Source of the DNA: Pumilibacteraceae bacterium
GTDB lineage: Bacteria > Bacillota > Clostridia > Christensenellales > Pumilibacteraceae
Reading direction: 5' to 3'
Assembly: GCA_045532295.1 (NCBI GenBank)
Contig: JAZSFP010000004.1
Span: forward strand, 796-24,795
DNA: 24,000 bases
Shown here: positions 4,419 to 19,992 of the stretch, in pieces
Layout of the letters: every line of letters begins with the position of its first letter
Position numbering within the stretch: the stretch's first letter is position 1
Made by a program: the position numbers and the translations under genes
The notes under the pieces: generated by a model
The model's database searches: none
What the model was told of the DNA's origin: nothing
The model's input: only the letters and a program-made list of their open reading frames with translations

Positions 4419-5225
4419 ATGTATAATCTTAGACACGGTTGTTCAATAGGTTTTAACGAATACTTTGAAGAGCGTTTAGAAGAGGCGGAAAAGGCGGGCT
4501 TTTACTCTCTTGAGTTTGGACTTTGCGCGCTTTGGTCGGACAGAGAAAAGGAAAAGGAGTTTTATAAAAACCTCCGCCCTGCTTTTGAAAAAATCAAGAA
4601 ATCTTCGCTCGTTCTCAACTCCGTGCATATATCGTTCGGGCTTGACTGGGAATTCTCTTCGCCAAACGAGGCGGTTAGGGTTAAGGCGATGAATAATCTT
4701 CGCGAAATTTTGCCCGTTATAAACGAATACGCGCCTAACTATTTGGTTATTCATCCCTCGTTCGAGCCCATCGACCCTGCTCTTCGCCAGGCGCATAAAA
4801 CCGCTCTCGTCGTATCCATTAACGAAATTAAGCAACTTACTTCGATAAAGATTGCTATTGAGAATTTGCCGAGGACTTGTTTATTTAACACCGCGGAAGA
4901 AGGACTTGAACTTCTTGAGCGCATAGGCGGAATTTACGCTTGCGTTGACGTAAATCACTTCCTCTTTGAAACTCCGCAAGAGGGCATTAGAAAACTCGGC
5001 AAGTATATAGTTACTACGCATATTTCCGACTACGATTTTATCGACGAGCGTCATCTTTTGCCCACTCGCGGTAAAATTGACTGGACGGCGGTCATTAAAG
5101 CCTTTGAAGAGGTGGGCTACGACGGAGTGTTCAACTCTGAAATCACGCTCGCACCTCGCACCGATATTACCGTTACCGCCGTTAAACGATGCTTTGAAAA
5201 CCTCTTTTTAACTGCAAACGAATAA
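4419..5225 (+). CDS. Xylose-isomerase-like TIM-barrel protein (sugar phosphate isomerase/epimerase, AP-endonuclease-2 fold)
   Basis: 268 aa with AGGAGGGG 7 nt upstream of the ATG. Family-typical strand-end residues are present (VIHP, IENL, CVDVNH, THISD, FNSEI). Confidence 0.7.
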   Translation: MYNLRHGCSIGFNEYFEERLEEAEKAGFYSLEFGLCALWSDREKEKEFYKNLRPAFEKIKKSSLVLNSVHISFGLDWEFSSPNEAVRVKAMNNLREILPVINEYAPNYLVIHPSFEPIDPALRQAHKTALVVSINEIKQLTSIKIAIENLPRTCLFNTAEEGLELLERIGGIYACVDVNHFLFETPQEGIRKLGKYIVTTHISDYDFIDERHLLPTRGKIDWTAVIKAFEEVGYDGVFNSEITLAPRTDITVTAVKRCFENLFLTANE

Positions 5226-5665: not shown

Positions 5666-6196
5666 TTAGTAATTATAACCGAGCATTACTGCTTTGAGGT
5701 TTATTTCGATAAGGTCGGCTTTCTTGGGGGGAACGACTTTTTTCATAGCCTCTTCTAAGCCCTCGATAGAAACGACGCCACTCTCTTTGATGACTTTGCC
5801 GAGCATAATCATATTAGCGAGGGTGGGCGCGCCCATATCCTTCGCCATTTTGGTAGCGGGAATATAGAAAGCGTTAACGTCTTCTCTTGCCACTTTTCTT
5901 TCTATAAGCGTGCTATCAACGACGATTACCGAGCCTGCAACCGCCTCGTTTTCGTATTTATCGAGCGAGGGAAGGTTCATTGCGATTAAGATATCGGGGT
6001 TAGACACGATGGGCGAGCCAACGGGTTCGTCGGAAATGATGATACTGCAGTTTGCCGTACCGCCACGCATTTCAGGACCGTAAGAGGGCAACCAACTTAC
6101 TTGCTTATCCTCGAAAAGTCCCTTGTACGCCAAGAACTTACCTGCAAAGAGTACGCCTTGACCGCCAAAGCCTGCAATTAAGATTTGTTTCGTCAT
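5666..6196 (-). CDS. 2-oxoacid:ferredoxin oxidoreductase, gamma subunit (VOR/KOR type)
   Basis: 176 aa with the N-terminal [14 protein letters not shown] motif typical of OFOR gamma subunits. It is the last gene of the delta-alpha-beta-gamma cluster. Confidence 0.85.
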
Positions 6197-6200
6197 AGTC

Positions 6201-6953
6201 TTAGTCCTCCTTCTTCGCGCTTCTGTCCTTGTAAACGCCTAAGGGATAATAGGGGAGCATTTTCTCCTCTACCCACTCAAGCGCCTTTTGAGGCGTCATA
6301 CCCCAGTTGGTAGGGCAAGAAGAAACGACTTCGATAAGCGAAAAGCCTTTGCCTTCAACTTGGTTACGGAACGCTTTAAGGATTGCCTTTTTAGCGTTCT
6401 TTACGTTTTTAACGGAGTTAACTGCAACGCGCTCAATATATTCAGGACCGTCCAAGGTTGCGAGCATTTCGCTAACTCTAATGGGGAAGCCCTGCGTTGC
6501 GGTATCACGACCGTAGGGGGAGGTTTGCGTTACCTGACCGGGAAGGGAGGTAGGCGCCATTTGTCCGCCCGTCATACCGTAGATAGCGTTGTTTACGAAG
6601 ATAATCGTGATATTCTCGCCTCTGGTTGCTGAGTGTACCGTTTCCGCCATACCGATAGAGGCAAGGTCGCCGTCGCCTTGGTAAGTAAATACGATATTTT
6701 CGGGCATACAGCGTTTAAGTCCCGTTGCAACCGCGGGCGCGCGTCCGTGAGCCGCCTCTAACATATCGCAAGTAAAGTAGTCGTAAGCCATAACCGCGCA
6801 ACCAACGGGCGCAACGCCAATGGTCTTACCTTCAATGCCAAGTTCTTCAATAGCCTCCGCTACGAGACGGTGAATAATACCGTGAGTACAGCCCGGGCAG
6901 TAATGCAAGGGCGTATCGGTGAGCGTAGAGGGTTTTTTAAATACGATAGCCAT
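6201..6953 (-). CDS. 2-oxoacid:ferredoxin oxidoreductase, beta (TPP-binding) subunit
   Basis: 250 aa with CPGCTHG and the TPP motif GDGDLASIG...NNAIYGMTGGQ. Its ATG overlaps the alpha subunit stop (TAATG), and AAGGAGG lies within the alpha 3' end. Confidence 0.9.
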   Translation of the reverse strand: MAIVFKKPSTLTDTPLHYCPGCTHGIIHRLVAEAIEELGIEGKTIGVAPVGCAVMAYDYFTCDMLEAAHGRAPAVATGLKRCMPENIVFTYQGDGDLASIGMAETVHSATRGENITIIFVNNAIYGMTGGQMAPTSLPGQVTQTSPYGRDTATQGFPIRVSEMLATLDGPEYIERVAVNSVKNVKNAKKAILKAFRNQVEGKGFSLIEVVSSCPTNWGMTPQKALEWVEEKMLPYYPLGVYKDRSAKKED

Positions 6954-8014
6954 TATTTAACCTCCTTCGACATCTTTTCGATGCTTGCAAGCACCTCGTC
7001 GGGCGAGGGCAACATACCACCCGTTCTGCTCGTGAGCCATACGGGGCGTTTGCACTCGGTCGCAAGGCGAATATCTTCAATCATTTGACCCATAGAAAGT
7101 TCTACGGAAATAAAGCCTTTAACCTGCTCTGCGGTCTTTTTCAAAACTTCGGTGGGGAAAGGCCAAAGCGTAATGGGGCGAATAAGTCCCACTTTTACGC
7201 CTTTCTTTCTCGCTGCGGTTACCGCGTTTTTGGAAATTCTTGCCGCGATACCGAACGCTACTACGCAGTACTCCGCGTCGTCCATCATATAACTTTCGTA
7301 TAAAACTTCGTCCTTATGGATTTTAGCGTACTTTTCAAAGCGTTCAATATTCGTCTTTTCCAAAATCTCGGGTTTAAGATAGAGCGAATTGATAATATTA
7401 TGCTTTCTCTCGCCCTTAGTTCCGTTAGCAGCCCAAGGCTTTTCAACGGGCGTAGAATTACTCTCGGGGATAGAAACGGGCTCCATCATTTGTCCCATAG
7501 TTCCGTCTGCAAGTAGCATTACGGGCATACGGTATTTGTCCGCTAAGTCGAACGCCTTAATCGTATAGTCCGCCATCTCTTGAACGGAGGCAGGGGCAAG
7601 CACTATAAGATGATAGTCGCCGTGTCCACCGCCCTTGGTCGCTTGGAAGTAGTCCGACTGCGAGGGCTGAATACCACCAAGACCGGGACCGCCACGCTGA
7701 ACGTTGACGATAAGCGCGGGAAGGTCTGCGCCGGCTATGTAGGAAATACCCTCTTGTTTAAGGGAAATTCCGGGGCTTGAAGAGGAAGTCATTACTCTAA
7801 AGCCTGCGCCTGCAACGCCGTAAACCATATTGATTGCGGAAACTTCGCTCTCAGCCTGCAAGAATACTCCACCGATTTTGGGCATACGCTTAGCCATATA
7901 AGCGGCAATCTCCGTTTGAGGCGTGATGGGATAACCAAAGTAGTGTCTGCAACCTGCTTTAATAGCCGCTTCCGCTATCGCCTCGTTACCTTTCATTAAA
8001 ACTTTTTCAGCCAT
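6953..8014 (-). CDS. 2-oxoacid:ferredoxin oxidoreductase, alpha subunit
   Basis: 353 aa. The N-terminus reads KGNEAIAEAAIKAGCRHYFGYPITPQTEI, followed by the internal motif VQRGGPGLGG, both typical of OFOR alpha subunits. Confidence 0.9.
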   Translation of the reverse strand: MAEKVLMKGNEAIAEAAIKAGCRHYFGYPITPQTEIAAYMAKRMPKIGGVFLQAESEVSAINMVYGVAGAGFRVMTSSSSPGISLKQEGISYIAGADLPALIVNVQRGGPGLGGIQPSQSDYFQATKGGGHGDYHLIVLAPASVQEMADYTIKAFDLADKYRMPVMLLADGTMGQMMEPVSIPESNSTPVEKPWAANGTKGERKHNIINSLYLKPEILEKTNIERFEKYAKIHKDEVLYESYMMDDAEYCVVAFGIAARISKNAVTAARKKGVKVGLIRPITLWPFPTEVLKKTAEQVKGFISVELSMGQMIEDIRLATECKRPVWLTSRTGGMLPSPDEVLASIEKMSKEVK

Positions 8015-8026
8015 AATTCGTTCTCC

Positions 8027-8233
8027 TTATCTTTCCACCGTAATCGCGCAGTCGGGACACATCGTAGCGCAGAAAGCGCAACCGATACACGCCTCTTGGT
8101 TGATAACCTCCGCAGGCGAGTGTCCTTTCGCGTTGAGGACGGTCTTGCTAAGTTCAATAATCTTCTTTGGGCAAGCGTGAACGCAAAGTCCACAACCCTT
8201 GCACACGTTTACTTCAATCGTAACTTTTGCCAT
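8027..8233 (-). CDS. 2-oxoacid:ferredoxin oxidoreductase, delta subunit (2x[4Fe-4S] ferredoxin)
   Basis: 68 aa with two CxxCxxCxxxCP motifs (CKGCGLCVHACP and CIGCAFCATMCP). Confidence 0.9.
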   Translation of the reverse strand: MAKVTIEVNVCKGCGLCVHACPKKIIELSKTVLNAKGHSPAEVINQEACIGCAFCATMCPDCAITVER

Positions 8234-8237
8234 TGTC

Positions 8238-8894
8238 TTACTCCTTAATATCGTAATATTTGCTTTGAAGGACGAGGGGGAACGCTCCCTCCATTTCCAC
8301 GGCAGAAGTCGTGAAAAGCACCTTTAGTCCCGTCAAAGCGGAAAGTCTTTCGCACTCGTCTTTAGTCGCTAAGATATCGTTTGCGGTAGTCTCGTCGCCG
8401 AGGTTAGAGTTGTTGATGATTGCGGTGAACTTGATTTTGCACGCGCTCTCAATCTCACGCATAACCTCGATAGCGTCCTCCGCCGTTCTCGTTAGCGGAC
8501 GATAAAAGTTAGCCACGAAACACATTTCGTAATTGTTTTCTTCTAAAATATAGGGGGTATATCTTCCCAGCGCGTACGCTCCTCTATCGTCGCCACCGAC
8601 GTCAATTATTGCAACCGTATTGCGATTTTGGAACATTGAGTACGCTTCGGGAGGAAGGGAAGGAAGGTCTACGTTAGTGTTAGCGAAAGCAGGAAGAATA
8701 ACTTTTACGCCCTTCTCCACTAACTCTCTTTCGCTATCCGCCGAGCGAAAATAGGGGTTGACGATATCAAGGTCAGCGAGCGTTACCGCTTTCCCCTCGC
8801 CCTTTAGCGCGAGCGCGAGGTTGACCGCAATATTCGTTTTTCCGCTACCGTAATGCCCTGCGATTATATAGACGCGCTTGTCTACGCCTTGCAT
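8238..8894 (-). CDS. P-loop NTPase of the MinD/ParA/CooC-like (SIMIBI) type, function unknown
   Basis: 218 aa with Walker A GHYGSGKT at residues 13-20, then LADLDIVNP and the Walker-B-like AIIDVGGDD. It overlaps the ilvE 3' end by 13 nt, which suggests translational coupling. Confidence 0.7.
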   Translation of the reverse strand: MQGVDKRVYIIAGHYGSGKTNIAVNLALALKGEGKAVTLADLDIVNPYFRSADSERELVEKGVKVILPAFANTNVDLPSLPPEAYSMFQNRNTVAIIDVGGDDRGAYALGRYTPYILEENNYEMCFVANFYRPLTRTAEDAIEVMREIESACKIKFTAIINNSNLGDETTANDILATKDECERLSALTGLKVLFTTSAVEMEGAFPLVLQSKYYDIKE

Positions 8895-9961
8895 ACCTTA
8901 CACATCCAGCCGTGAGTATCCTCTACCTTGCCCCACTGAATACCCGTTAAGTTGTCGTAGAGTTTTTGAGTGAGCGCGCCGATTTCGTTATTCGATACGG
9001 TGTACTCAACGCCGTCGTAGAAGAGTTTGCCGATGGGCGAAACGACTGCCGCCGTTCCCGTTCCCCAAGCCTCTTCAAGTTTGCCTTCTTTTGCCGCGGT
9101 AAAGAGTTCGTCGACGGAGAAAAGGCGTTCTTCAACCTCGTAGCCCCACTCTTTGAGAAGTTCTACGCAAGACTTTCTGGTAATACCGGGAAGAACCGAG
9201 CCGGTGAGCGCAGGCGTGATAATCTTTCCGTCCACTTTGAACATTACGTTCATACTGCCTACTTCTTCGATATACTTTCTGTCTACGCCGTCAAGCCAAA
9301 GAACTTGGGTATAACCGTTCTCTTCCGCTCTCTTGCCTGCTCTAAGGGAGGCTGCGTAGTTACCACCGCACTTAGCGTAACCCGTACCACCGCGAACCGC
9401 TCTGACGTCGCTTTGCTCGATAGCGATTTTAACGGGGTTAATGCCCTCTGCGTAGTACGCGCCAACGGGCGAGCAGATTACCACGAACATAGCCTCGTGT
9501 ACTGCGTGAACGCCAAGGTGTGGGTCGTTACCGTACATATAGGGACGAAGGTAAAGGGAAGTTCCCTCGCTGTGAGGAACCCAGTCCTTTTCCACTTCTA
9601 CGATAGTCTTTAAGATATCAAGGCAAGCCTCTTCGTCGATTTGGGGCAAGCAAAGACGCTCCGCGCTATTGTTGAGACGGCGAATATTCTCTAAAGGACG
9701 GAACATTGCAATCTCGTTTTGGGCAGTTCTATAAGCCTTCATACCCTCGAAAATCTCCGCGCCGTAGTGAAGAACGGTGGACGCTGGATGAACGGGGATA
9801 GGCGCGAAAGGTACGATTTGAGCGTCGTACCAGCCCTTGTCCTCCGACCACTTCATAATAAACATATGGTCGGTAAACACTCTACCAAAACCCAGTTTGC
9901 TCTCGTCTTGAGGTTTTTGCTTGGGACTTGTCGTCTTAGTAATTTTAATATCGAATTTCAT
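8882..9961 (-). CDS. ilvE: Branched-chain-amino-acid aminotransferase (fold-type IV)
   Basis: 359 aa with FEGMKAYR, SLYLRP, GTGYAKCGGNYAASL, LPGITR and GTAAVVSPI. AGAGAGG lies 8 nt upstream of the ATG. Only 29 nt separate it from the upstream ligase gene, and that gap has no hairpin. Confidence 0.9.
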   Translation of the reverse strand: MKFDIKITKTTSPKQKPQDESKLGFGRVFTDHMFIMKWSEDKGWYDAQIVPFAPIPVHPASTVLHYGAEIFEGMKAYRTAQNEIAMFRPLENIRRLNNSAERLCLPQIDEEACLDILKTIVEVEKDWVPHSEGTSLYLRPYMYGNDPHLGVHAVHEAMFVVICSPVGAYYAEGINPVKIAIEQSDVRAVRGGTGYAKCGGNYAASLRAGKRAEENGYTQVLWLDGVDRKYIEEVGSMNVMFKVDGKIITPALTGSVLPGITRKSCVELLKEWGYEVEERLFSVDELFTAAKEGKLEEAWGTGTAAVVSPIGKLFYDGVEYTVSNNEIGALTQKLYDNLTGIQWGKVEDTHGWMCKVCKA

Positions 9962-9990: not shown

Positions 9991-12285
9991 CTATAATTTA
10001 TTTCTTTGGATTTTACCCGAAGTCGTCTTGGGAAGTTCGTCGCGGAATACGACTACTCTGGGGTACTTATAAGGCGCGGTGCGTTCTTTAACGTAGGCTT
10101 GGATTTCCTTTTTGAGTTCTTCCGTGCCCTCCGTTCCCTTAACGAGCACTATGCTCGCCTTAACTACTTGACCGCGAACCTCGTCGGGCTGAGCGGAAAC
10201 GCCACACTCAAGCACGTAGGGAAGTTCCATAATGACGTTCTCGATTTCAAAAGGTCCGATGCGGTAACCAGACGACTTAATAACGTCGTCAACGCGTCCT
10301 ACGTACCAGTAATAGCCGTCCTCGTCGCGCCAAGCGGTGTCGCCCGTATGGTAATATCCGTCGTGCCAACACTCCGCCGTCTTTTCCTCGTCGTCGTAGT
10401 AGCCCACGAACAAGCCGTTGGGTTTGCCGTGCTCGGTCTTGATACAGATTTCGCCCACTTCGCCCACCGCGGTAGGTTTGCCGTCGGCGTCGAGAAGTTT
10501 AATGTCGTATAGGGGTACGGGCTTACCCATTGAGCCAAGGCGCGAGGTCGTGCCTGCAAGGTTAGCAAGCGCAACGGTGGTTTCCGTTTGACCAAAGCCC
10601 TCCATAATCTGAAGTCCCGTTGCCTTTTCAAACTGACGGAAAACTTCGGGGTTGAGCGCCTCGCCGGCAGTTGACATATGCTCGATTGAGGAAAGGTCGA
10701 AGTTGGAAAGGTCTTGCTTTATCATCATTCTAAGCATAGTCGGGGGAGCACAGAAAGTGGTTATATGGTACTTTGCGAACATAGGCATAATGTCGTTTGC
10801 GTCGAAACGGTCAAAGTCGTAAACGAACAGTCCCGCCTCGCAAAGCCATTGTCCGTAAAGTTTACCCCACGCTGCCTTTGCCCAACCCGTGTCGGATATG
10901 GTAAGGTGTAGTCCGTCGGGGTTTACCGAGTGCCAGTACTTTGCGGTTATAAAGTGTCCTAAGGGGTACTTGTAGTTGTGCATAGCAATCTTGGGATTGC
11001 CGGTAGTACCCGAGGTAAAGTACATAAGCATTATATCGTCTCCGCAAGGAGCGTCCTCGCCTCTTTCAAGTTTGCCCGTATAGAGCGTATACTCTTCGTC
11101 GAAGGTTCTCCAGCCCTCACGCTTGCCGTTGACCATAATGATATGCTCGAGCGAGGGAGCGTTCTCTTTTGCCTTTTCCACCTCGAAAGACACTTCGCCG
11201 TCAGCGGTACAAAGGATTGCTTTTACGCCCGCTTTGTTAAGACGGTAAGTAATATCGTGCTCTTTAAGTTGGTTGGTAGCGGGGATTGCGATTGCGCCGA
11301 TCTTGTGAAGAGCGACCATAGCGAACCAGAACTGATAGTGGCGTTTGAGGATAAGCATTACCCTATCGCCTTTCTTAATTCCAAGCGCCTTGAAGTAGTT
11401 TGCGCACTGGTTAGAGGCGCGTTTAAGGTCGTGGAAAGTAATTCTTCGCTCCGTTTTGTCGTTCGATATATGCATAAGCGCGGTCTTGTCGGGGTCTTTG
11501 TCCGCAATAGCGTCCACCACGTCAAAGCCGAAGTTAAAGGTATCGTCGTTTCTAAAGGATATGGAAGTAGGTACTCCTCTCCCGTCCTCGGTAGTCGTGA
11601 TATACTTTTCCCAAACGCGTTTTCCCTCGTCCTTTTTCTTGGGAGGCGCGAACACCACGTCGGGCTCGTTGATTTTTGCGTGGGTAATGGTAGAAACGGA
11701 CTCGCGAGCAGGGTTAAGAACGAACGCGTAGAACACGCAGTCTGCGTTGTCCACCGCTATCATACCGTGAGGAACGGAACTGTCGTAGTAAATGCTGTCG
11801 CCCTCGCGGAGAATTTCGATATGATTTCCTACCTGTACTTTTAACGCGCCCGATACTACCACGTCGCACTCTTGTCCTTCGTGCGAGGTTAGTTCTATGG
11901 GCTTATTTTGTTGGAGAGGGTCGTACGAGGACACTACGAACAACGGCTCGGCAATTCTGTTCTTAAAGGCGGAGGCGAGGTTATAGTAAACCATACCGTG
12001 AGCCTTTTGAATTTCTTGACCTTCGCCCTTTCGCGTTACCGTGTATCCTGCAAGTCGAGGACCGCTACCGTCGATAATTTCGGTTACGTCAACCTTTAAA
12101 GCGGCTGCGCAACGGTACAAAAAGGCAAAGTTAAGGTCGCTACTACCGTTCTCGCAAGAGGCGTACTCTTCTTCGCTTACGCCCGTCTTTTGCGCCATTT
12201 CTTCAATCGAAAGTCCTTCGATTTCACGCAAAGTGCGAATACGCTGTGCCATCTCCATTATTTTGCTTTCTAAACTGTTAAACAT
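9991..12285 (-). CDS. Fusion protein: XRE-type HTH + cupin + AMP-forming acyl-CoA synthetase (medium-chain/ACSM-like), paralog 1 (Val T-box controlled)
   Basis: 764 aa counted from ATG 12285 (AGGAG 6 nt upstream); the track's extra 14 codons lie in the leader. The HTH is RIRTLREIEGLSIEEMAQKTGVSEEEYASCENG. The cupin is HEGQECDVVVSGALKVQVGNHIEILREGDSIYYDSSVPHGM. Ligase motifs are FTSGTTGNPK, SDTGW, GFGQTET, YHTGD, SSGYRIGPFEIE and PKTTSGKIQR. Confidence 0.85.
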   Translation of the reverse strand: MFNSLESKIMEMAQRIRTLREIEGLSIEEMAQKTGVSEEEYASCENGSSDLNFAFLYRCAAALKVDVTEIIDGSGPRLAGYTVTRKGEGQEIQKAHGMVYYNLASAFKNRIAEPLFVVSSYDPLQQNKPIELTSHEGQECDVVVSGALKVQVGNHIEILREGDSIYYDSSVPHGMIAVDNADCVFYAFVLNPARESVSTITHAKINEPDVVFAPPKKKDEGKRVWEKYITTTEDGRGVPTSISFRNDDTFNFGFDVVDAIADKDPDKTALMHISNDKTERRITFHDLKRASNQCANYFKALGIKKGDRVMLILKRHYQFWFAMVALHKIGAIAIPATNQLKEHDITYRLNKAGVKAILCTADGEVSFEVEKAKENAPSLEHIIMVNGKREGWRTFDEEYTLYTGKLERGEDAPCGDDIMLMYFTSGTTGNPKIAMHNYKYPLGHFITAKYWHSVNPDGLHLTISDTGWAKAAWGKLYGQWLCEAGLFVYDFDRFDANDIMPMFAKYHITTFCAPPTMLRMMIKQDLSNFDLSSIEHMSTAGEALNPEVFRQFEKATGLQIMEGFGQTETTVALANLAGTTSRLGSMGKPVPLYDIKLLDADGKPTAVGEVGEICIKTEHGKPNGLFVGYYDDEEKTAECWHDGYYHTGDTAWRDEDGYYWYVGRVDDVIKSSGYRIGPFEIENVIMELPYVLECGVSAQPDEVRGQVVKASIVLVKGTEGTEELKKEIQAYVKERTAPYKYPRVVVFRDELPKTTSGKIQRNKL

Positions 12286-12353
12286 AATTACTCCTATAAG
12301 TAAGCGAATAATAAGGCTATCGTTCAATAGACATAGGCTATGGAACAGAGCCT

Positions 12354-12626
12354 ACAAAAAACGCTCGTCTCAAAAAATCATCTTTGAGACGAGCATACTT
12401 TTCCGTATTACCCGCGGTACCACTCAAATTGCGCAAGCGCGCCACCTCAGGCTCAAACAAGCCGTAGACTTTTACGCAGTCGTCACGGGAAGGTTCTAAT
12501 AGGGCGAGCGCCCGTTCTTCCTTCCGACTCGGAAGTTACAGTTCTTTTCTCACTTTAACGGTTCACACCTTCGTCCGTCTCTCTGAAAAGTTACCCAAAA
12601 AGAACACTCTTCGTCACAGTCTTTAC
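12354..12626 (-). promoter_or_regulatory. T-box riboswitch leader, specifier GUA (Val)
   Basis: Read on the minus strand. GA/K-turn: GACT-GTGAC-GAAG pairs with CTTC-CGA-GTC. AG bay: AGAGAG. Distal stem ACGG/CCGT has a loop containing GGTGTGA. Specifier loop: GAAC-U-GUA-A-CUUC, with the codon at the complement of 12537-12539. T-box motif: AATTTGAGTGGTACCGCGGG (complement of 12411-12430). Terminator: GCTCGTCTCAA/TTGAGACGAGC (12363-12394) plus GTTTTTTGT. TTTGAG of the T-box can pair with CTCAAA of the terminator 5' arm to form the antiterminator. Confidence 0.9.
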
Positions 12627-12632
12627 GGGGCA

Positions 12633-12661
12633 ATTATACCATTTTTAATATGGTTTGTCAA
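12633..12661 (-). promoter_or_regulatory. Consensus SigA-type promoter of the Val T-box unit
   Basis: Minus strand: TTGACA (12661-12656), a 17 nt spacer, then TATAAT (12638-12633) preceded by TGg (extended -10). It starts 45 nt downstream of the paralog-2 stop codon. Confidence 0.85.
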
Positions 12662-12706
12662 CGATTTTTCAAAGGTTTCTTACATTATTTATACTATACT
12701 ATATAA

Positions 12707-14974
12707 TTATAATTTATTTCTTTGGATTTTACCCGAGATAGTCTTGGGCAGTTCGTCGCGGAAGACTACGATACGGGGGTACTTATAGGGCGCGGTATGG
12801 GACTTAACGTAGGCTTGGATTTCCTTTTTAAGTTCTTCCGTTCCCACCGTTCCTTTGGTTAAAACTACGCTCGCCTTAACTACCTGACCACGAATATCGT
12901 CGGGCTCGGGGGACACGGCGCACTCAAGCACGTAGGGAAGTTCCATAATAACGCTCTCGATTTCAAAAGGTCCGATGCGGTAGCCAGACGACTTGATAAC
13001 GTCGTCTTTACGGCTAACGTACCAAAAATATCCGTCCTCGTCGCGCCAAGCGGTGTCGCCCGTGTGGTAAACGCCGTCGTGCCAAGCGTCAGCGGTAAGG
13101 TCTTCCGCTCTGTAATATTCCTTGAAAAGTCCACAGGGAACGGACTCGTCGGTATGGATAACGATTTCGCCCGTCTCACCGTTGGGAAGAGAATTGCCCT
13201 CGTCGTCCACGATATCCACTCTGTACTGGGGCGACGCTTTACCCATCGAGCCGATTTTGGGCGTCGTTCCGCGGAGGTTACAGATAGTAAGCGTGGTTTC
13301 CGTTTGGCCAAAGCCCTCCATAATCTTAAGCCCCGTAGCGTGCTCGAACTGACGGTAAACCTCGGGGTTGAGCGCCTCGCCTGCCGTGGTCATATGATGA
13401 ACGGAGGAAAAATCGTACTTTCCAAGGTCGCTCTTTATGAACATTCTGAGCATAGTTGGGGGAGCGCAGAAGGTCGTGATTTGGTACTTTGCGAACATAG
13501 GAAGGATTTCCTCTGCCTTGAAGACGTCGAAGTCGTAAACGAACACCGCGCCTTCGCAAAGCCATTGACCGTACAGTTTGCCCCAGAGCGATTTGCCCCA
13601 GCCCGTATCGGAAATGGTAAAGTGTAGTCCGTCGCGCTCGCAGTTATGCCAGTATTTAGCGGTAACGTAATGTCCAAGCGCGTAGGTGTGCTTGTGAGCC
13701 GCCATTTTAGGATTGCCCGTCGTTCCAGAAGTGAAGAACATAAGCGCGGTATCCTCGCCGGCAGAGGCGTTCTCTGCGCGGTCGAACTTGCTCGAAAAAC
13801 GCGTGTACTCTTCGTTAAAGTTATGCCAGCCCTCTTTTTCGCCGTTGACGAGCAACTTAACTTCCACGGAAGGACAGTTCTTCGACGCGCGCTCGGCAAT
13901 GTCGGAAACGTCGCCGTCGGCAGTACAAACGATAGCCTTTACGCTCGCTGCGTTAAAGCGGTATTCAAAGTCGTGCTCTTTGAGTTGGTTGGTAGCAGGG
14001 ATTGCGACCGCGCCGATTTTATGAAGAGCGACCATAGCGAACCAGAACTGATAATGGCGTTTAAGCACGAGCATTACCTTATCCCCTCTCTTAATTCCAA
14101 GCGAGAGGAAGTAGTTCGCGCACTGGTTAGAGGCTTTTTTGATATCCTTAAAGGTAAATCTGCGCTCCGTTAAATCACGGCTTATATGGAGCATAGCAAG
14201 TTTATCGGGGTACTTATTCGCAATCTCGTCCACAACGTCAAAGCCGAAGTTAAAGGTGTCGGTATTCTTGAACTTAATGTCGGTAAGAGTGCCGTTCTCG
14301 TCCTCGGTGGTCTCGACGAACTTCTCGCAAATAAGTTCCTCGGACTCCTGATGCGCCACTACGCTCTTTCTTACTACCTCTTCCTTGGTGTCCTCGCCGG
14401 GAAGAACTACCGCGCAGAACACGCAGTCGCGTCCGCCGATTGCTATCATACCGTGAGGGGTGGACGAATTATAGTAAATGCTGTCGCCCTCGTTAAGAAT
14501 TTCCGTATGCTCGCCGATTTGTACTTTAAGCGAACCCTCTAAAACGAGGTCGAACTCTTGACCGCCGTGGGTGGTAAGGTGGATAGGCTTATTCTGTTGC
14601 GACGCAGAATACTCGTATCTTACCCAGTAAGGCTGAGCAATTTTATCGCGGAACTTGGGCGCAAGGTTCTTAATGTCGATGCCCTCTTCTTTAGCCGTCG
14701 ACTGTCCCTGTCCCTTTCTCGTTACCGTATAAGAAGATAGGTTCGCAGCGTTACCTTCAAGAAGTTCGGTAAGTTCTACGCCGAAAACTAACGCGCATTT
14801 ATGAATAAATGAAAAGGGAATATCTATTCGACCAGACTCGTATTTAATGTAATCGCTCTCGCTAACTTCAGCGCGATTTGCCATTTCCGATACCGAAAAT
14901 CCCATTACGTTACGCATTTCTTTGATACGCTGGGCAACTTCCGTCAGTCTGTTCATAGTGTTCTTGTCTTCCAT
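12707..14974 (-). CDS. Fusion protein: XRE-type HTH + cupin + AMP-forming acyl-CoA synthetase, paralog 2 (Ile T-box controlled)
   Basis: 755 aa counted from ATG 14974 (AAGGAG 9 nt upstream). The track's extra 43 codons run through the T-box terminator. The architecture and motifs match paralog 1 (FTSGTTGNPK, SDTGW, GFGQTET, YHTGD, SSGYRIGPFEIE, PKTISGKIQR), and both share the C-terminal end SGKIQRNKL. Confidence 0.85.
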   Translation of the reverse strand: MEDKNTMNRLTEVAQRIKEMRNVMGFSVSEMANRAEVSESDYIKYESGRIDIPFSFIHKCALVFGVELTELLEGNAANLSSYTVTRKGQGQSTAKEEGIDIKNLAPKFRDKIAQPYWVRYEYSASQQNKPIHLTTHGGQEFDLVLEGSLKVQIGEHTEILNEGDSIYYNSSTPHGMIAIGGRDCVFCAVVLPGEDTKEEVVRKSVVAHQESEELICEKFVETTEDENGTLTDIKFKNTDTFNFGFDVVDEIANKYPDKLAMLHISRDLTERRFTFKDIKKASNQCANYFLSLGIKRGDKVMLVLKRHYQFWFAMVALHKIGAVAIPATNQLKEHDFEYRFNAASVKAIVCTADGDVSDIAERASKNCPSVEVKLLVNGEKEGWHNFNEEYTRFSSKFDRAENASAGEDTALMFFTSGTTGNPKMAAHKHTYALGHYVTAKYWHNCERDGLHFTISDTGWGKSLWGKLYGQWLCEGAVFVYDFDVFKAEEILPMFAKYQITTFCAPPTMLRMFIKSDLGKYDFSSVHHMTTAGEALNPEVYRQFEHATGLKIMEGFGQTETTLTICNLRGTTPKIGSMGKASPQYRVDIVDDEGNSLPNGETGEIVIHTDESVPCGLFKEYYRAEDLTADAWHDGVYHTGDTAWRDEDGYFWYVSRKDDVIKSSGYRIGPFEIESVIMELPYVLECAVSPEPDDIRGQVVKASVVLTKGTVGTEELKKEIQAYVKSHTAPYKYPRIVVFRDELPKTISGKIQRNKL

Positions 14975-15042
14975 TTTTCTAATCTCCTTTTTATTTTTTA
15001 AGGCTGTGAGCGGAGGGGGCAAATAGTCTTTAAGGCGAAGAC

Positions 15043-15315
15043 CTAAAAAACCCATCTCAATGATTCTAACATTGAGACGGGTTAAAATAACTCGCGGTAC
15101 CACTCAACTTGCATAAAAAATTATGCCACTTATCAGGTTCAAACAAACCCTACGCACTAACGCAGCGGACTCGGAAAGCGCCTACTAAAGCAATCGCTCT
15201 TTGGGGCTTTCGGCTCGGAAGTGATAGGTCTTGCGGACTCTTCGTTTATCGGTTCTCAGCAACCCGACTCTCTGGAAAACTATTTATCCAACCGTCTTCG
15301 TCACAGCCTTTATAT
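15043..15315 (-). promoter_or_regulatory. T-box riboswitch leader, specifier AUC (Ile)
   Basis: Read on the minus strand. GA/K-turn: GGCT-GTGAC-GAAG pairs with CTTC-CGA-GCC. AG bay: AGAGAG. Distal stem TCGG/CCGA has a loop containing GCTGAGA. Specifier loop: GACC-U-AUC-A-CUUC, with the codon at the complement of 15223-15225. T-box motif: AAGTTGAGTGGTACCGCGAG (complement of 15091-15110). Terminator: ACCCGTCTCAATG/CATTGAGATGGGT (15050-15082) plus TTTTTTAGG. Confidence 0.9.
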
Positions 15316-15321
15316 GCGCCT

Positions 15322-15350
15322 ATTATAGCACTACGCTTTTTCTTTGTCAA
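15322..15350 (-). promoter_or_regulatory. Consensus SigA-type promoter of the Ile T-box unit
   Basis: Minus strand: TTGACA (15350-15345), a 17 nt spacer, then TATAAT (15327-15322) preceded by TGc. It begins 30 nt after the amidohydrolase stop. Confidence 0.85.
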
Positions 15351-16177: not shown

Positions 16178-18631
16178 TTACCCCTTTATGCCGAGCATTT
16201 CCACGCTCTGCTCTTTCATCTTATATTTAAGAATTTTGCCCGCAGCGTTCATCGGGAATTCTTTGACGAACACGAAGTAACGGGGTACTTTGTGTTTAGC
16301 CATATTAGCGTTACCGTACTCGCGCATTTCCGCCTCGTCCGCCGTTTCGCCTTTTTTAAGGATTATCCAAGCGCAACATTCTTCGCCGTATCTCTCGTCG
16401 GGAACGCCCACTACTTGCACGTCGCGAACTTTTTGGTGAGTAAGATAGAACTCTTCAATCTCGCGAGGATAGAGGTTTTCGCCACCGCGAATAATCATAT
16501 CTTTAAGTCTGCCCGTAACCTTATAGTATCCGTCCGCAGTTTTGCAACAGATATCTCCGCTATGGAGCCAGCCTTCTCTATCAATCGCCTCGCTGGTTGC
16601 TTTGGGCATTTTGTAATAGCCTTTCATTATATTATAACCGCGCGCAACGAACTCGCCGTTCTCACCGTCGGGAACTTCCTCGCCCGTTTCGGGGACGATA
16701 ACCTTACACTCAACGCCGGGGAAAGCCGAGCCTACCGTTTCCACTCTATGCTCTTCGTCCTCGTTGACTTCGCCCATAGTGCACCCGGGGCTTGCCTCGG
16801 TCTGACCGTAAACGCTGATTATCTCGCGCATATTCATTTCCGCCGACGCTCTGCGCATAAGGTCTGCCGGACAGTTCGCCCCTGCCATTATTCCCGTTCG
16901 CATATACGAAAAGTCCGTTTTAGCAAAGTCGGGGTGGTTGAACATAGCGATAAACATCGTGGGAACGCCGTTAAAGGCGGTAATATGCTCGTCGTTTACG
17001 CAAGCAAGCGAACTTTTTGGCGAGAAGTAGGGCATAGGACACATAGTTACGCCGTGCGTCATACTGTTCGTCATTGAAAGCACCATACCAAAGCAATGGA
17101 ACATAGGTACTTGTATCATCATTCTGTCCGCCGTGGACATATCCATTCTGTCGCCTATGATTTTACCGTTGTTGACGATATTGCGATGAGTGAGCATTAC
17201 GCCTTTAGGAAAGCCCGTAGTACCCGAAGTGTACTGCATATTGCACACGTCGTCGGGGCGAACGAGCGCGGCGCGTCTTCTAACCTCTTCGTCAGGAACG
17301 AGAACGCTCCTCTTCATAAAGTCTTCCCACTCTAAGCATCCGTCCATATTAAAGCCTACCGTTATTACGTTGCGAAGGAAAGGCAAGGTCTTTGAGTAAA
17401 GGGGCTGGGCGGGGGTTAAATTTTTAAGTTCGGGACAAAGTTCTTCGATTATTTCTTTATAGTTACTGTCCTTGCAACTGTCAATCATAACGAGCGTATG
17501 CGTGTCGGACTGACGGAGGAGGTACTCTGCCTCGTGGATTTTATAAGCGGTATTAACCGTAACGAGAACCGCGCCGATTTTTACCGTCGCCCAGAAGGTA
17601 AGATACCACTGAGGAATATTCGTCGCCCAAATTGCCACGTGGTGTCCGGGGCGCACGCCAAGGGATATAAGTGAGGCGGCTACTTTATCCACTTCGTCAC
17701 GGAATTCGCGATAGGTACGCGTATAATCGTGCGTGGTATACTTAAAAGCGTACTGGTCGGGATAATGCTCTACCATAGTGTCGAGAACCTCGGAAAAGGT
17801 AAGGTCGAGAACTTCGTACTTTTTCCAAGGGTGCGTTCCGCTCTTATCTCTATTATAGAAAATTTCCTTGGGTTTTGCGCTCGCCCGTTCAATCGAACTC
17901 ATAAAACTTTCAAAGTGCGTGAGCAAAATATCGGGGTTAGTAACCTCGCCGGCGGAAAGCGCGCAGATATAACCGTCGTAGTTAAGGGAACGGAGCGCGC
18001 TTATAAACTCGCCTACGGGCAGTTCGCCCTCGCCCATAAGCGTGTCTTCGCCATCAAGCATATCGCCGATTTTAACGTACTCAATGTACGCGCCCAAAGT
18101 CTGAATAGTGCGGTCGGCAGTCTCTTTCGCTCTAAAGAAGGTCTCGCGGATATTCCAGCACACCTTTACCGACGCCGAGCCCAGCATACCTATAACGCCC
18201 AAGATTTTCTCAGTGTGAGCAAGCGCGTTCGCCGTCTCTATTAAAATATCAACGCCGTACTCTTCCGCCGTCTTTATTACAGGGGTAAAGATTTCCTTGA
18301 TTTTTTCCTCCGTAATTTCGCCAAAGGTAACCACGACGCCCGGAGCAGTTACGCGTCCTGCTTGCTTAATCGTTTCGATAATATCCTGAGGGTTGGTGTT
18401 TTGGTCGATAATCTTGGGATAGCCCACTACCGCTATGGCAATTCTGCGGTTGATAAGTTTGCGCTTTTGGTCAACGGTAAGTTCCTCGCGGAAAATACTG
18501 TCCGCGTGCGCGCTAATCTGTTCTTCTATCGACGATATTTCAAAGCCCGAAAACCCGTAATGCGCCGTAGCGGTGCAAAGTTCAAGGAAACTTTTAGTGG
18601 GTACGAGCGAAGTAGAAAATGCAAGTTTCAT
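16178..18631 (-). CDS. Fusion protein: xylose-isomerase-like TIM barrel (N-terminal ~250 aa) + AMP-dependent acyl-CoA ligase (FadD/ACSF2-like)
   Basis: 817 aa. The N-terminal part (GFSGFEIS...VVVTFG...DILIETAN...VCWNIRETF...YVKIGD...GELPVGEFISALRSLNYDGYI) looks like the AP-endonuclease-2/xylose-isomerase fold. The C-terminal part has YTSGTTGFPKGVMLTH, YGQTE, LHSGD, RGGENLYPREIE and AAGKILK. The 471-aa plus-strand ORF at 15662-17077 is an antisense shadow. Confidence 0.8.
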   Translation of the reverse strand: MKLAFSTSLVPTKSFLELCTATAHYGFSGFEISSIEEQISAHADSIFREELTVDQKRKLINRRIAIAVVGYPKIIDQNTNPQDIIETIKQAGRVTAPGVVVTFGEITEEKIKEIFTPVIKTAEEYGVDILIETANALAHTEKILGVIGMLGSASVKVCWNIRETFFRAKETADRTIQTLGAYIEYVKIGDMLDGEDTLMGEGELPVGEFISALRSLNYDGYICALSAGEVTNPDILLTHFESFMSSIERASAKPKEIFYNRDKSGTHPWKKYEVLDLTFSEVLDTMVEHYPDQYAFKYTTHDYTRTYREFRDEVDKVAASLISLGVRPGHHVAIWATNIPQWYLTFWATVKIGAVLVTVNTAYKIHEAEYLLRQSDTHTLVMIDSCKDSNYKEIIEELCPELKNLTPAQPLYSKTLPFLRNVITVGFNMDGCLEWEDFMKRSVLVPDEEVRRRAALVRPDDVCNMQYTSGTTGFPKGVMLTHRNIVNNGKIIGDRMDMSTADRMMIQVPMFHCFGMVLSMTNSMTHGVTMCPMPYFSPKSSLACVNDEHITAFNGVPTMFIAMFNHPDFAKTDFSYMRTGIMAGANCPADLMRRASAEMNMREIISVYGQTEASPGCTMGEVNEDEEHRVETVGSAFPGVECKVIVPETGEEVPDGENGEFVARGYNIMKGYYKMPKATSEAIDREGWLHSGDICCKTADGYYKVTGRLKDMIIRGGENLYPREIEEFYLTHQKVRDVQVVGVPDERYGEECCAWIILKKGETADEAEMREYGNANMAKHKVPRYFVFVKEFPMNAAGKILKYKMKEQSVEMLGIKG

Positions 18632-18633
18632 AG

Positions 18634-19992
18634 TTATTTTTCCTCGTGTACGATTTTGTTAAGGGCGTTTACGTACGCGCGAACGCACGCTCCGATAATG
18701 TCGGTTGAAACGCCGTTGCCGGGGTAAAGTTTTCCGTTAGCGCGAAGTCTAATGATGGCCGAGCCTACCGCCTCTCTGCCTTTCGTGATTGCGGAAATGC
18801 GGAAGTCGTCAAGTTCGTAATGGTGTCCTACGACCTGCTCAATTGCGTGGAACACCGCGTCGATAGGACCGTCGCCCGTGCTTACTCCGCTAAAACGCTC
18901 GCCGTTCTTCTCAAGCGTTACGTTCGCAGTCGCCGAAATTATGCTACCGCTGTTTACAACGTAACTAACGAGGTGATAGGTAGAAGGCGCTTGCATAGCG
19001 GTGGAGGCGATTACTGCCTCAAGTTCACGCTTGTCAACCGACTTTTTGCGAACGGTAAGACGCTTAAATTCGTCGTAAACCTTGCCCGTGTCCTCGTCCG
19101 TAAGTTCGTATCCAAGCGATTTTATTACCGCGCTAACCTCAGAAAGCGTGCTTGAAGAGGAAAGTTTAACCGTCTTTTCCTCCTCCTCGCTCTCTTTTTC
19201 CGTTACCGCGCTTGCTTGCTCGCTAATGTTTTTAATGGAAGTGATATCAATGTTTGCGCTCGCGTTGAGCGTACCGCCCTTTGCTCTAATAACCTCGGCA
19301 AAAACCGCTGGGCGAAGGAACGCTCCGCTAATGGAAGTTACCACACCGTCCGCGCCACTCTCAATAGCCTTAATAGCGTTCGCGCTCGCTAAAGAAAGAG
19401 CGTCCGAGGGACAAGCAATGACGGAAATTTTCGATACCGTATTGATTTTTTCGAGCATTTTTGCGTAATCTTCGGGAAAAGCCTCGCCTGCCTCGTCGTA
19501 AATAATTACTCCGCTTGCGCCCTTCTCTTCTACCGCTTTAACGCACTTTTCGATAAAGCCTTCCTCCGCTCTAAAAGCGTCGGTGAGCATAACGAAAACC
19601 TCACTACATTTTGCTTTTGCGCACTCGGTAAGCAACGCTATTTTTTCAAGCATAGCCGAGGCTTTAAGATGATATTTGTACTCCATAGTCGCAGTGGAAA
19701 CGGGCATAGACACTACGAGCGCAGGGGCAACCGCTCCCTTAACGCAAGCATAGGCGCGCTCTATTCCCTTTTCGCTATCGCCTACCTCTACGGCAACTTT
19801 TGCGTTTTTAACGGACTCAGCGAGCGTTTTGTAGATTACTTCGCTCTCTTTACTAACGCCGGGGAAAGGCAAATAAATAATATCCACTCCGCTCTTGTCA
19901 AGTAGCGCGCATAGGTTTAGTCTTTCACGGAAGGTAAAGTTTTCCTTCTCAATGGTCTTGAGCGTTGCGTCTATAGTAATGATTTTTTTCAT
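18634..19992 (-). CDS. 2-isopropylmalate-synthase-like protein (DRE-TIM barrel + LeuA C-terminal regulatory domain) with non-canonical active-site residues
   Basis: 452 aa with AGGAGG 9 nt upstream of the ATG. It is collinear with LeuA, but IDATLKTIEKE replaces FDTTLRDGEQ and SVIACPSDALSLASANAIKAIESGA replaces [23 protein letters not shown]. The C-terminus (GVSTGDGPIDAVFHAIE...ISAITKGREAVGSAIIRL...GNGVSTDIIGACVRAYVNALNK) matches the LeuA dimerisation and Leu-binding domain pattern. Confidence 0.75.
   Translation of the reverse strand: MKKIITIDATLKTIEKENFTFRERLNLCALLDKSGVDIIYLPFPGVSKESEVIYKTLAESVKNAKVAVEVGDSEKGIERAYACVKGAVAPALVVSMPVSTATMEYKYHLKASAMLEKIALLTECAKAKCSEVFVMLTDAFRAEEGFIEKCVKAVEEKGASGVIIYDEAGEAFPEDYAKMLEKINTVSKISVIACPSDALSLASANAIKAIESGADGVVTSISGAFLRPAVFAEVIRAKGGTLNASANIDITSIKNISEQASAVTEKESEEEEKTVKLSSSSTLSEVSAVIKSLGYELTDEDTGKVYDEFKRLTVRKKSVDKRELEAVIASTAMQAPSTYHLVSYVVNSGSIISATANVTLEKNGERFSGVSTGDGPIDAVFHAIEQVVGHHYELDDFRISAITKGREAVGSAIIRLRANGKLYPGNGVSTDIIGACVRAYVNALNKIVHEEK

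Follow-up and report, generated by a model that had tools for sequence, protein, structure and literature searches.

Two genes in the window (the whole 24,000-nucleotide stretch of DNA that was analysed), here called par1 and par2, each encode a protein in which a Cro/C1-type helix-turn-helix (HTH) and a Cupin_2 barrel are followed by a linker of 35-45 residues and a complete AMP-forming acyl-CoA ligase. The HTH-cupin-ligase fusion is not rare, and the free-standing form of the HTH-cupin module is, wherever this could be checked, an obligate partner of a ligase of the same clade. Judging from its sequence, the module is unlikely to bind DNA as such domains usually do. We tentatively propose, with a confidence just short of even, that it would bind a ligand or a metal and act on the enzyme as a regulatory and dimerisation module; how the module works is the uncertain, inferred step of this explanation. 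The features of the locus are given below in positions of the window, with the minus strand marked (-) and the evidence in parentheses.

9991..12285 (-), par1, a 764-residue HTH-cupin-linker-ligase of the Val T-box group, predicted isobutyrate-CoA ligase (ORF, Pfam, MbcS NCBIfam, 3ETC, specifiers)
12073..12273 (-), par1 Cro/C1-type HTH, residues 5-71, five helices, net charge -7 over 66 residues (Pfam HTH_19/HTH_31/HTH_3, AlphaFold2)
11716..12018 (-), par1 cupin barrel, residues 90-190, with the family-invariant H135, E139 and H173 (Cupin_2, model strands, alignment)
11581..11715 (-), par1 linker, residues 191-235, poorly conserved, low model confidence (pLDDT, paralog alignment)
9994..11580 (-), par1 ligase domains AMP-binding and AMP-binding_C (Pfam, motifs, 3ETC match)
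12382..12626 (-), par1 T-box leader, GUA (Val), with terminator and antiterminator (Rfam RF00230, model positions 1-219)
12633..12661 (-), par1 leader promoter, TTGACA-17 nt-TATAAT, with an A-tract ahead (sequence, 115-promoter profile)
12707..14974 (-), par2, a 755-residue HTH-cupin-linker-ligase of the Ile T-box group, predicted 2-methylbutyrate-CoA ligase (ORF, Pfam, NCBIfam, specifiers)
14759..14959 (-), par2 HTH, residues 6-72, net charge -4 (Pfam, charge count)
14402..14704 (-), par2 cupin barrel, residues 91-191, with H136, E140 and H174 (Pfam, invariant columns)
12710..14296 (-), par2 ligase domains (Pfam, paralog alignment)
15070..15313 (-), par2 T-box leader, AUC (Ile) (Rfam, specifier parse)
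15322..15350 (-), par2 leader promoter, TTGACA-17 nt-TATAAT (sequence, 115-promoter profile)
5666..9961 (-), downstream block co-directional with par1 (Pfam, NCBIfam, ORF list)
8882-9961 (-), ilvE (Pfam/NCBIfam)
8238-8894 (-), CbiA-like ATPase (Pfam/NCBIfam)
8027-8233 (-), 2x[4Fe-4S] ferredoxin (Pfam/NCBIfam)
5666-8014 (-), 2-oxoacid:ferredoxin oxidoreductase (VOR) alpha, beta and gamma subunits (Pfam/NCBIfam)

Both genes are uninterrupted ORFs of the window that encode single polypeptides of 764 and 755 residues. Their starts are supported by AGGAG ahead of ATG 12285 (par1) and AAGGAG ahead of ATG 14974 (par2), and the two proteins are 62% identical over their full length. The Pfam matches all exceed the gathering scores in both paralogs: HTH_19 (par1 residues 14-75, E 3.7e-9; par2 E 1.1e-9), Cupin_2 (par1 residues 131-187, E 8e-11; par2 E 3.6e-11), AMP-binding (par1 residues 260-630, E 5e-70; par2 E 5.7e-68) and AMP-binding_C (par1 E 3e-21; par2 E 7e-22). 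The HTH families over the cut-off are HTH_19, HTH_31 and HTH_3 in par1 and HTH_19 and HTH_3 in par2. The best 120 database homologues have 752-795 residues and the same four domains, and residues 1-764 are matched by 79 genome loci. A preliminary description of this DNA had placed an HTH-cupin unit at the N-terminus of the ligase in both paralogs; the ORFs, the Pfam matches and the homologue lengths concur with this, the cupin motif that it quoted is found in both proteins, and the HTH, cupin and AMP-binding profiles that it named as a check on the domain boundaries match significantly in par1 and par2. The suspicion that an overlooked frameshift or stop conceals two separate genes is excluded by the continuous ORFs, the four-domain homologues of similar length and the 79 loci.

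AlphaFold2 modelling of par1 residues 1-200 (pLDDT 88) gave five helices at residues 5-71 and the cupin strands at residues 90-190, and because of this the boundaries claimed earlier for N-terminal extensions of ~200 residues (11640-12285 and 14359-14974) are about right. The full-length AlphaFold2 model, built on an alignment of 9 sequences, is poor (pLDDT 61, pTM 0.46), and its residues 190-220 have a pLDDT below 50. What had been called a short acidic linker is indeed present, poorly conserved and gapped or divergent between par1 and par2, but it is acidic in par2 only. A long unconserved linker speaks against a rigid docked arrangement.

At least 596 species genomes contain relatives of the fused proteins. 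Of these relatives, the best 79 are full-length fusions without exception, with module loss at none of their loci, and the hosts of the relatives are, by record titles, gut and rumen anaerobes/Clostridia. Among free-standing proteins, the closest relatives of the N-terminal module have ~184 residues. When these were inspected individually, all nine with a readable downstream gene were found to sit 11-130 nt upstream of, or to overlap, a gene for a ligase of ~550 residues, and at the metagenome loci that extend 300 nt or more downstream the free-standing module lies directly upstream of a same-clade ligase in 67 of 67 cases. The window therefore has an obligate two-gene cassette in its fused form. 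Short database matches (190-390 residues) were considered as free-standing forms; most end at contig edges, P0046 has a frameshifted tail, and there is no genuine split form among them. In P0284, a fused paralog that is catalytically dead, the module is kept and helix 3 is more polar (TSQEYQ).

Branched short-chain acids are major metabolites of the gut and rumen. To our knowledge, a classical pathway makes Val, Ile and Leu from these acids by reductive carboxylation, and its genes are poorly defined; a search of the literature on the HTH-cupin-ligase fusion and on the pathway genes found nothing specific. The ligases of par1 and par2 belong to the same clade as S. aureus MbcS and M. acetivorans 3ETC. 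MbcS is the closest NCBIfam family (442 and 441 bits), and since its equivalog cut-off of 850 bits is not reached, it is the nearest family and par1 and par2 are not equivalogs of it. The best solved structure is PDB 3ETC (610 bits), whose chain, unlike the fused proteins, has only 580 residues. The ligase motifs are intact in par1 (the P-loop TSGTTGNPK, and PKTTSGKIQR with the C-terminal catalytic Lys). Purified MbcS is selective for 2-methylbutyrate and isobutyrate and poor on isovalerate (PMC10026030), and this preference matches the Ile and Val T-boxes on par2 and par1; the Leu T-box operon holds a ligase of another clade. From the specifier codons and the MbcS specificity we infer that par1 would activate isobutyrate and par2 2-methylbutyrate, the substrates that were measured for MbcS, although the role of MbcS is in fatty-acid priming and the role here would be in amino-acid synthesis. 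A module-free ligase of this clade is active, as MbcS was purified alone (PMC10026030), and the MbcS papers do not mention an HTH or a cupin.

Each gene has its own T-box leader, Val GUA for par1 and Ile AUC for par2, at a locus that also has ilvE and VOR. The earlier suggestion of a protein-level sensor layered on a T-box is borne out as far as the RNA is concerned, with Rfam RF00230 matching the par1 leader (75.4 bits, E 9e-16) and the par2 leader (86.7 bits, E 1e-18); these two of the three T-boxes in the window score under the Rfam gathering score of 93, yet they are full-length matches. Among par1-like orthologues (51 leaders in all) the specifier is GUA or GUC in 39 of the 45 that could be parsed, and among par2-like orthologues (50 leaders in all) it is AUC in 46 of 49, and the full-length T-box with specifier and terminator is kept in the orthologous loci. 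Transcription of par1 and of par2 starts in each case from a strong sigma-A promoter of the gene's own and runs through its own T-box. The leaders resemble those of T-box amino-acid operons in having a specifier codon, a terminator and an antiterminator, and the codon fits the pathway product; unlike in the usual operons, the target here is a ligase that activates acids for a salvage route and that carries an extra sensor-like module. In the pathway that we propose, isobutyrate (par1) or 2-methylbutyrate (par2) would be converted to the acyl-CoA, the acyl-CoA would be reductively carboxylated to the 2-oxo acid by the adjacent ferredoxin oxidoreductase, and IlvE would transaminate the 2-oxo acid to Val or Ile. 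Uncharged cognate tRNA would turn the respective ligase on through the T-box.

Beneath this slower layer, the HTH-cupin pair would act at the protein level and not as a promoter-binding repressor. The cupin pocket, on the invariant His, Glu and His, would take up a metal, a small metabolite of the carboxylate type, or both. Like its counterpart in HppE, the helical domain would be a structural and subunit-contact element, and the whole module would dimerise the enzyme and dock on it. In this way the entry step, which consumes ATP, would come under rapid control after translation. Conserved group-specific differences between the paralogs number eight in the 190-residue module and one in the 529-residue ligase, the latter being Ala469 of par1, which is Gly in the Ile group. 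This concentration in the module would suit paralog-specific ligand recognition or insulation of the dimer interface.

The main alternative, possible though to us doubtful, is that the proteins are trigger enzymes or tethered local repressors. A dimer would sit on a palindromic operator in its own or other BCAA promoters, and a cupin ligand (acid, acyl-CoA or amino acid) would release it or tighten its hold, giving two-input control together with the T-box. The domains are those expected, HTH_3/HTH_19 and Cupin_2, and the nearest solved regulator, 1Y9Q, is matched both in fold (E 1e-14) and in profile (E 1e-10). The module has the domain order of the XRE-cupin regulators (E. coli PuuR and SutR, V. 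cholerae 1Y9Q, and P. aeruginosa ErfA, PsdR and PauR), with a Cro/C1-type HTH at the N-terminus and a Cupin_2 barrel behind it. Its free-standing relatives, of ~184 residues, likewise have a gene adjoining that of a metabolic enzyme, and it has the motifs H-x-G-x-E and P-H in common with PuuR. The free-standing XRE-cupins that have been characterised by experiment all bind DNA and repress metabolic genes in their own neighbourhood (PMC7901475), and the regulator-then-ligase cassette looks like a local unit of this kind. This layout of a regulator next to an enzyme fits the local-repressor pattern too and is counted against a protein-level reading. The differences from the XRE-cupin regulators are that the module is either fused to the enzyme or encoded immediately upstream of it, always on the same strand; that its HTH is net acidic, with many Glu in the recognition helix; that the searches turned up no palindromic operator; and that T-boxes drive expression.

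BirA, PutA and NadR are trigger enzymes, and par1 and par2 resemble them in having an enzyme and a DNA-binding-type domain on one polypeptide; like BirA, ANL ligases also form an acyl-adenylate. Regulation of transcription by an enzyme of this kind has a precedent in P. aeruginosa FadD1, an acyl-CoA ligase that binds promoters (PMC12754631) and that, unlike par1 and par2, has no HTH. That the dead P0284 keeps its module suggests that a purely regulatory use is possible. In contrast to the trigger enzymes, the sequence features of par1 and par2 speak against DNA binding, and the sensor would be a separate cupin and not the active site.

The HTH is acidic throughout the family, with a mean net charge of -4.2 in 120 free-standing and -4.6 in 120 fused members, compared with +2 in PuuR and +5 in SutR. 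The recognition helix is S-x-E-E-Y-x-x-Y/C-E-x-G, with a face that is acidic and variable among close orthologues, and the positions aligned to the K and Q of the regulator-type recognition helix of 1Y9Q are Glu or variable. The HTH residues that are most conserved and paralog-specific lie in helices 1 and 4 and not in helix 3. Charge and helix composition bear on DNA binding only indirectly, and some DNA-binding HTH domains are non-basic. In 115 orthologous promoters of the fused genes only the A-tract, TTGACAA and TGTGnTATAAT are conserved, with no conserved position outside the A-tract, the -35 and the extended -10 and no positional palindromy. A shared palindrome was sought in 70 non-redundant upstream regions of the cassettes, with arms of 5 or 6 nt matched exactly or of 6 nt with one mismatch allowed, and a spacer of 0-16 nt between them, and none was found above shuffled sequence; the operator searches cover exact or one-mismatch inverted repeats near the genes, and degenerate, distant or lineage-specific sites would escape them. 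Two candidate operators were rejected: the block AAACCnnTGnAAAAnnGTTGACA, common to three promoters of the window, corresponds to generic promoter elements in the 115 orthologues and its positional palindromy is negligible, and the recurrent TAnnTTTG-like block upstream of the cassettes is a Bacteroidota-type promoter element. The T-boxes, moreover, gate expression already. Because the HTH is acidic, its helix is Glu-rich or variable, no palindrome was found and the common block is generic, the trigger-enzyme reading is weakened and weight shifts from DNA binding toward an allosteric sensor.

It is unlikely that the cupin is catalytic, in which case the module would be an HppE-like domain holding a metal on His/Glu/His and carrying out a chemical step on the acid, acyl-adenylate or acyl-CoA, coupled to the ligase. 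The triad (H135, E139 and H173) is invariant in 147 sequences and falls on HppE H138, E142 and H180 in a profile alignment over the whole module (E 2e-7). The module matches HppE by Foldseek with E 2e-14 and a TM of about 0.5 at ~21% identity, and the HTH-like-plus-cupin enzymes HppE, Psf4, HEPD and MPnS, which are among the closest folds, are as close as the regulator 1Y9Q. HppE and the module thus share a two-domain fold, coincident His/Glu/His residues and a helix 3 without basic residues, and HppE is not known to bind DNA through its helical domain. The strict coupling of the module gene to an enzyme gene also favours a catalytic step. However, the triad does not discriminate between an enzyme and a regulator, because the repressor PuuR retains it as well. 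HppE-type reactions are oxygen-dependent, whereas the hosts here are gut and rumen anaerobes; HppE, Psf4, HEPD and MPnS are oxygen-using enzymes of phosphonate pathways, and par1 and par2 stand in a context of anaerobic branched-chain acid salvage with an ANL ligase as the partner. No phosphonate or oxygenase genes were found around par1 and par2, the neighbours being ilvE, VOR, ligases and T-boxes. The inferred pathway has no need for an extra step, and MbcS-type ligases are complete enzymes on their own.

Very improbable, and disfavoured, is an evolutionary leftover, in which the module would be what remains of a fused regulator gene, with no present function in T-box-controlled genes: the T-boxes alone could explain regulation and the linker is unconserved, but conservation reaches at least 90% at 46 of the 190 module positions, with the same residue in both paralog groups (51 sequences each), and the module is retained in both paralogs, in the relatives from the species genomes counted above and at every one of the best 79 loci.

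The reading of the module as a regulator of the enzyme may extend to the family. The members of a large subfamily annotated as "XRE family transcriptional regulator" would then not be transcription factors but would serve short-chain acyl-CoA synthetases as their dedicated regulatory or assembly subunits, fused to them in gut Clostridia. Through a helical domain like that of HppE and a cupin pocket for a metal or a carboxylate, they would control adenylate-forming enzymes post-translationally; we hold this wider claim at clearly less than even confidence. The locus allots one T-box-specified ligase to each amino acid, and the constant presence of a sensor-like module, within the ligase or beside it, implies a conserved, uncharacterised layer of control on adenylate-forming enzymes. 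If the module does bind DNA, the fusions would be abundant new trigger enzymes that join sensing at the RNA level to sensing at the protein level. If it does not, thousands of "XRE family regulator" annotations would be wrong, and if these proteins are indeed regulatory subunits, they would represent a mode of ANL-enzyme control that is separate from lysine acetylation.

The two acyl-CoA ligase genes that carry the N-terminal helix-turn-helix (HTH) and cupin module, par1 and par2, each have a separate promoter, and good ribosome-binding sites precede both start codons. The genes, their leaders and a third T-box are located as follows.

9991-12285, minus strand: par1, uninterrupted open reading frame, 764 aa, ATG at 12285
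12382-12626, minus strand: T-box leader of par1, full-length, specifier read as GUA (Val)
12707-14974, minus strand: par2, uninterrupted open reading frame, 755 aa, ATG at 14974
15070-15313, minus strand: T-box leader of par2, full-length, specifier read as AUC (Ile)
20058-20292, minus strand: third T-box, specifier CUC (Leu)

The preliminary description placed an HTH and a cupin N-terminal to the ligase in both paralogs, and Pfam agrees: the domain order in both is HTH_19/HTH_3, Cupin_2, AMP-binding, AMP-binding_C, all above the gathering scores, and the proteins are 62% identical end to end. The overlooked frameshift or stop that it allowed for is not present in either reading frame. The best 120 database homologues are equally long (752-795 aa) with the same domains, and residues 1-764 are matched at 79 genome loci; therefore the fusion is real and not a frameshift artefact. 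The T-box side of the dual control that it proposed was also borne out by the full-length leaders of both fusion genes. A short, imperfect inverted repeat (TAGGCT-N9-AGCCTA or AGGTCTT-N7-AAGACT) lies directly past the T-box terminator and 5' of the start codon in both paralogs (12330-12356 and 15025-15055, minus strand). A model of residues 1-200 (147 sequences) gave a pLDDT of 88, with five helices at aa 5-71 and a cupin barrel at aa 90-190; the full-length model was of poor quality.

The NCBIfam closest to the ligase part is MbcS (442 bits, below the equivalog cut-off of 850), and the closest solved structure is 3ETC, an acyl-CoA synthetase from Methanosarcina acetivorans (610 bits). Purified MbcS is selective for 2-methylbutyrate and isobutyrate, and isovalerate is a poor substrate (PMC10026030). 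In 79 related loci a T-box precedes nearly every fused gene, and two orthologue groups are arranged in tandem: a par2-like group with an AUC specifier in 46 of 49 parsed leaders and a par1-like group with GUA or GUC in 39 of 45. Lying 3' of par1 are ilvE and genes for a CbiA-like ATPase, a ferredoxin and a three-subunit 2-oxoacid:ferredoxin oxidoreductase, the arrangement that established rumen microbiology would lead us to expect where branched-chain acids are converted to branched-chain amino acids by reductive carboxylation. We infer both this pathway and the substrates of par1 and par2 (isobutyrate and 2-methylbutyrate, respectively). The CbiA/ParA-like P-loop ATPase (8238-8894, minus strand), between ilvE and the ferredoxin/oxidoreductase genes, may act in Fe-S maturation or assembly of the oxidoreductase; in another locus, L080, where the ATPase gene is at 707-1378, an equivalent arrangement adjoins an unfused HTH-cupin and ligase gene pair.

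The Leu, Ile and Val T-boxes (CUC, AUC and GUA) each serve a different acyl-CoA ligase, all within 10 kb, and this layout of one riboswitch per acid is kept in dozens of metagenome-assembled gut and rumen genomes. The Leu T-box drives a leuA-like gene, a TIM barrel-ligase fusion and an amidohydrolase gene. The first of these (18634-19992, minus strand) encodes a short protein of 452 aa with HMGL-like and LeuA_dimer domains. Its isopropylmalate-synthase match is split into two stretches and, at 232 bits, falls far short of the cut-off of 532. Either a divergent synthase or a leucine-sensing paralog is possible, and similar genes come after Leu T-boxes in related loci. The ligase gene (16178-18631, minus strand) fuses an AP_endonuc_2 domain, a xylose-isomerase-like TIM barrel, to an AMP-binding ligase whose PRK12583-like clade is distinct from that of par1 and par2, and the Amidohydro_2 gene comes next. 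A second, free-standing AP_endonuc_2 gene of the same family as this N-terminal domain adjoins the oxidoreductase genes (4419-5225, plus strand). In another locus (L094/L095, 7371-9872) the TIM barrel, ligase and Amidohydro_2 are three unfused genes beside a free-standing HTH-cupin gene with its own ligase.

At least 596 species-level genomes contain relatives, and the 79 best matches are fused without exception; these come from uncultured Clostridia of the gut and rumen (Oscillospiraceae, Acutalibacteraceae, Christensenellaceae, Ruminococcus). Databases name them only "AMP-binding protein", "cupin domain-containing protein" or "acetyl-CoA synthetase", and a literature search on the HTH-cupin-ligase fusion found no paper. 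When the N-terminal 225 aa were searched exhaustively, HTH-cupin proteins of 183-195 aa (35-43% identity) emerged as the nearest relatives that are not fused. A module profile gave 2325 matches with E ≤ 1e-5, a total that does not separate fused from free-standing proteins; the best 120 are all free-standing (182-227 aa), from sources including Clostridium thermosuccinogenes, Petroclostridium, Ignavibacteriales and Deltaproteobacteria, and where named they are called transcriptional regulators (often XRE family) or cupin-domain proteins. Wherever the gene directly 3' of an individually inspected free-standing relative was readable, it encodes an AMP-binding ligase (~550 aa) on the same strand, overlapping or 11-130 nt away. 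Among 80 metagenome loci, the ligase follows in all 67 having at least 300 nt downstream, and it is 44-57% identical to the par1 ligase. The module is thus an obligate partner of this ligase clade, and par1 and par2 represent a strict two-gene cassette whose members have become fused. Genes for a CbiA-like ATPase, a ferredoxin and an oxidoreductase already adjoin that of P0281, a close free-standing relative. Many free-standing HTH-cupin genes (L110-L149 and others) carry TAnnTTTG-like blocks, e.g. GTAATATTGAAA, ~20-30 nt 5' of the start codon; read as Bacteroidota-type -7 promoter elements, these suggest that Firmicutes are not the only bacteria in which the cassette is common. The component parts (XRE-cupin module, ANL ligase, T-box) are all of known kinds; what appears to be undescribed is that an XRE-cupin subfamily is strictly coupled to a ligase clade, that it is fused to the enzyme across a large gut-Clostridia clade, and that its HTH is acidic.

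T-box control, the fusion itself, the cassette, the clade of the ligases and the unusual HTH are all established here; the function of the module is the most uncertain point of the analysis. It is possible, if doubtful, that the module belongs to a trigger enzyme or a tethered local repressor: characterised XRE-cupin proteins are all local repressors (PMC7901475), the cassette looks like a local-repressor unit, and FadD1 is an acyl-CoA ligase that binds DNA (PMC12754631). Par1 and par2 have the domain-level features of the XRE-cupin family but depart from it in two indirect DNA-related comparisons. The mean net charge of the 66-residue HTH is -4.2 for 120 free-standing members, which span -10 to -1, and -4.6 for 120 fused ones (par1 -7, par2 -4), versus +2 in PuuR and +5 in SutR, which are proven repressors. 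The third helix has the pattern S-x-E-E-Y-x-x-(Y/C)-E-x-G, whose Glu residues align, by profile, with K, A, M and Q of helix VSKAMLGQIERG in 1Y9Q, an XRE-cupin regulator. In 102 fused orthologues the exposed positions of the third helix are highly variable (2-3 bits entropy), and those that do not vary (Y, C/Y, E, G) have a core or structural role; helices 1 and 4 carry the best-conserved and paralog-specific HTH surfaces (RIxELR; DLNFAFIYRC vs DFPFSFIHKC). In 115 fused-gene promoters aligned on the -35 box, conservation is limited to an A-tract, TTGACAA and TGTGnTATAAT, with no positional palindromy in this crude operator test, and an equally crude search of 70 non-redundant cassette upstream regions found no common inverted repeat above shuffled controls. 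A block common to the three window promoters was rejected as an operator and is ordinary promoter sequence, since neither orthologous nor cassette promoters conserve an operator. Charge, recognition helix and operators, three indirect tests, together argue against DNA reading by the HTH.

By Foldseek, the module is equally close to 1Y9Q (E 1e-14) and to hydroxypropylphosphonate epoxidase (HppE; E 2e-14), followed by Psf4, HEPD and MPnS, enzymes that consist of an HTH-like helical domain and a cupin. The family profile aligns with HppE in one stretch spanning the entire module; the HppE helix aligned to the third helix, ETPETVAAWENG, likewise lacks basic residues, and the family-invariant His/Glu/His (par1 135, 139, 173) align with HppE 138, 142 and 180, which we take to be its iron ligands. 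HppE, whose helical domain is not known to bind DNA, is a precedent for an HTH-like and cupin fold that functions in another way. Because PuuR also keeps His/Glu/His, the triad marks a conserved pocket and does not discriminate between sensor and enzyme. A catalytic metallo-cupin, which the shared fold and triad favour, is improbable, as the pathway needs no extra step and an HppE-type context was not found here. A vestigial relic is contradicted by the strong conservation of the module and is the least probable reading.

We tentatively favour a ligand- or metal-binding regulatory and dimerisation module that would act on the ligase, because the partnership is obligate and then fused, is kept under T-box control in hundreds of species, involves an HTH that looks unsuited to DNA, and uses a fold that in HppE can serve without DNA binding. 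It is also favoured because MbcS is active without such a module (PMC10026030).

Val and Ile groups (51 sequences each) were compared for positions conserved within groups and differing between them. The 529-aa ligase has only one, in DTGW[A/G]K.

About 10879-10881, minus strand: par1 Ala469 codon; the equivalent par2 residue is Gly

Ala469 suits the smaller acyl group expected for the Val group and Gly the larger one for the Ile group, making this position a candidate determinant of acyl-pocket size. Elsewhere, a fused paralog (P0284; L179 4493-6769) has lost its P-loop (FLQSYSYGMAKP) and C-terminal catalytic Lys (DANGVV), retains the HTH-cupin module including His, Glu and His, and is probably a pseudo-enzyme; its gene lies 72 nt 3' of an intact fused ligase under an Ile T-box, with an aminotransferase gene next. 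The 190-aa module has eight group-specific positions (57, 58, 71, 95, 98, 100, 110, 115), none in helices 2 or 3, and to judge from these its divergence fits paralog-specific ligand recognition or dimer-interface insulation better than operator divergence.
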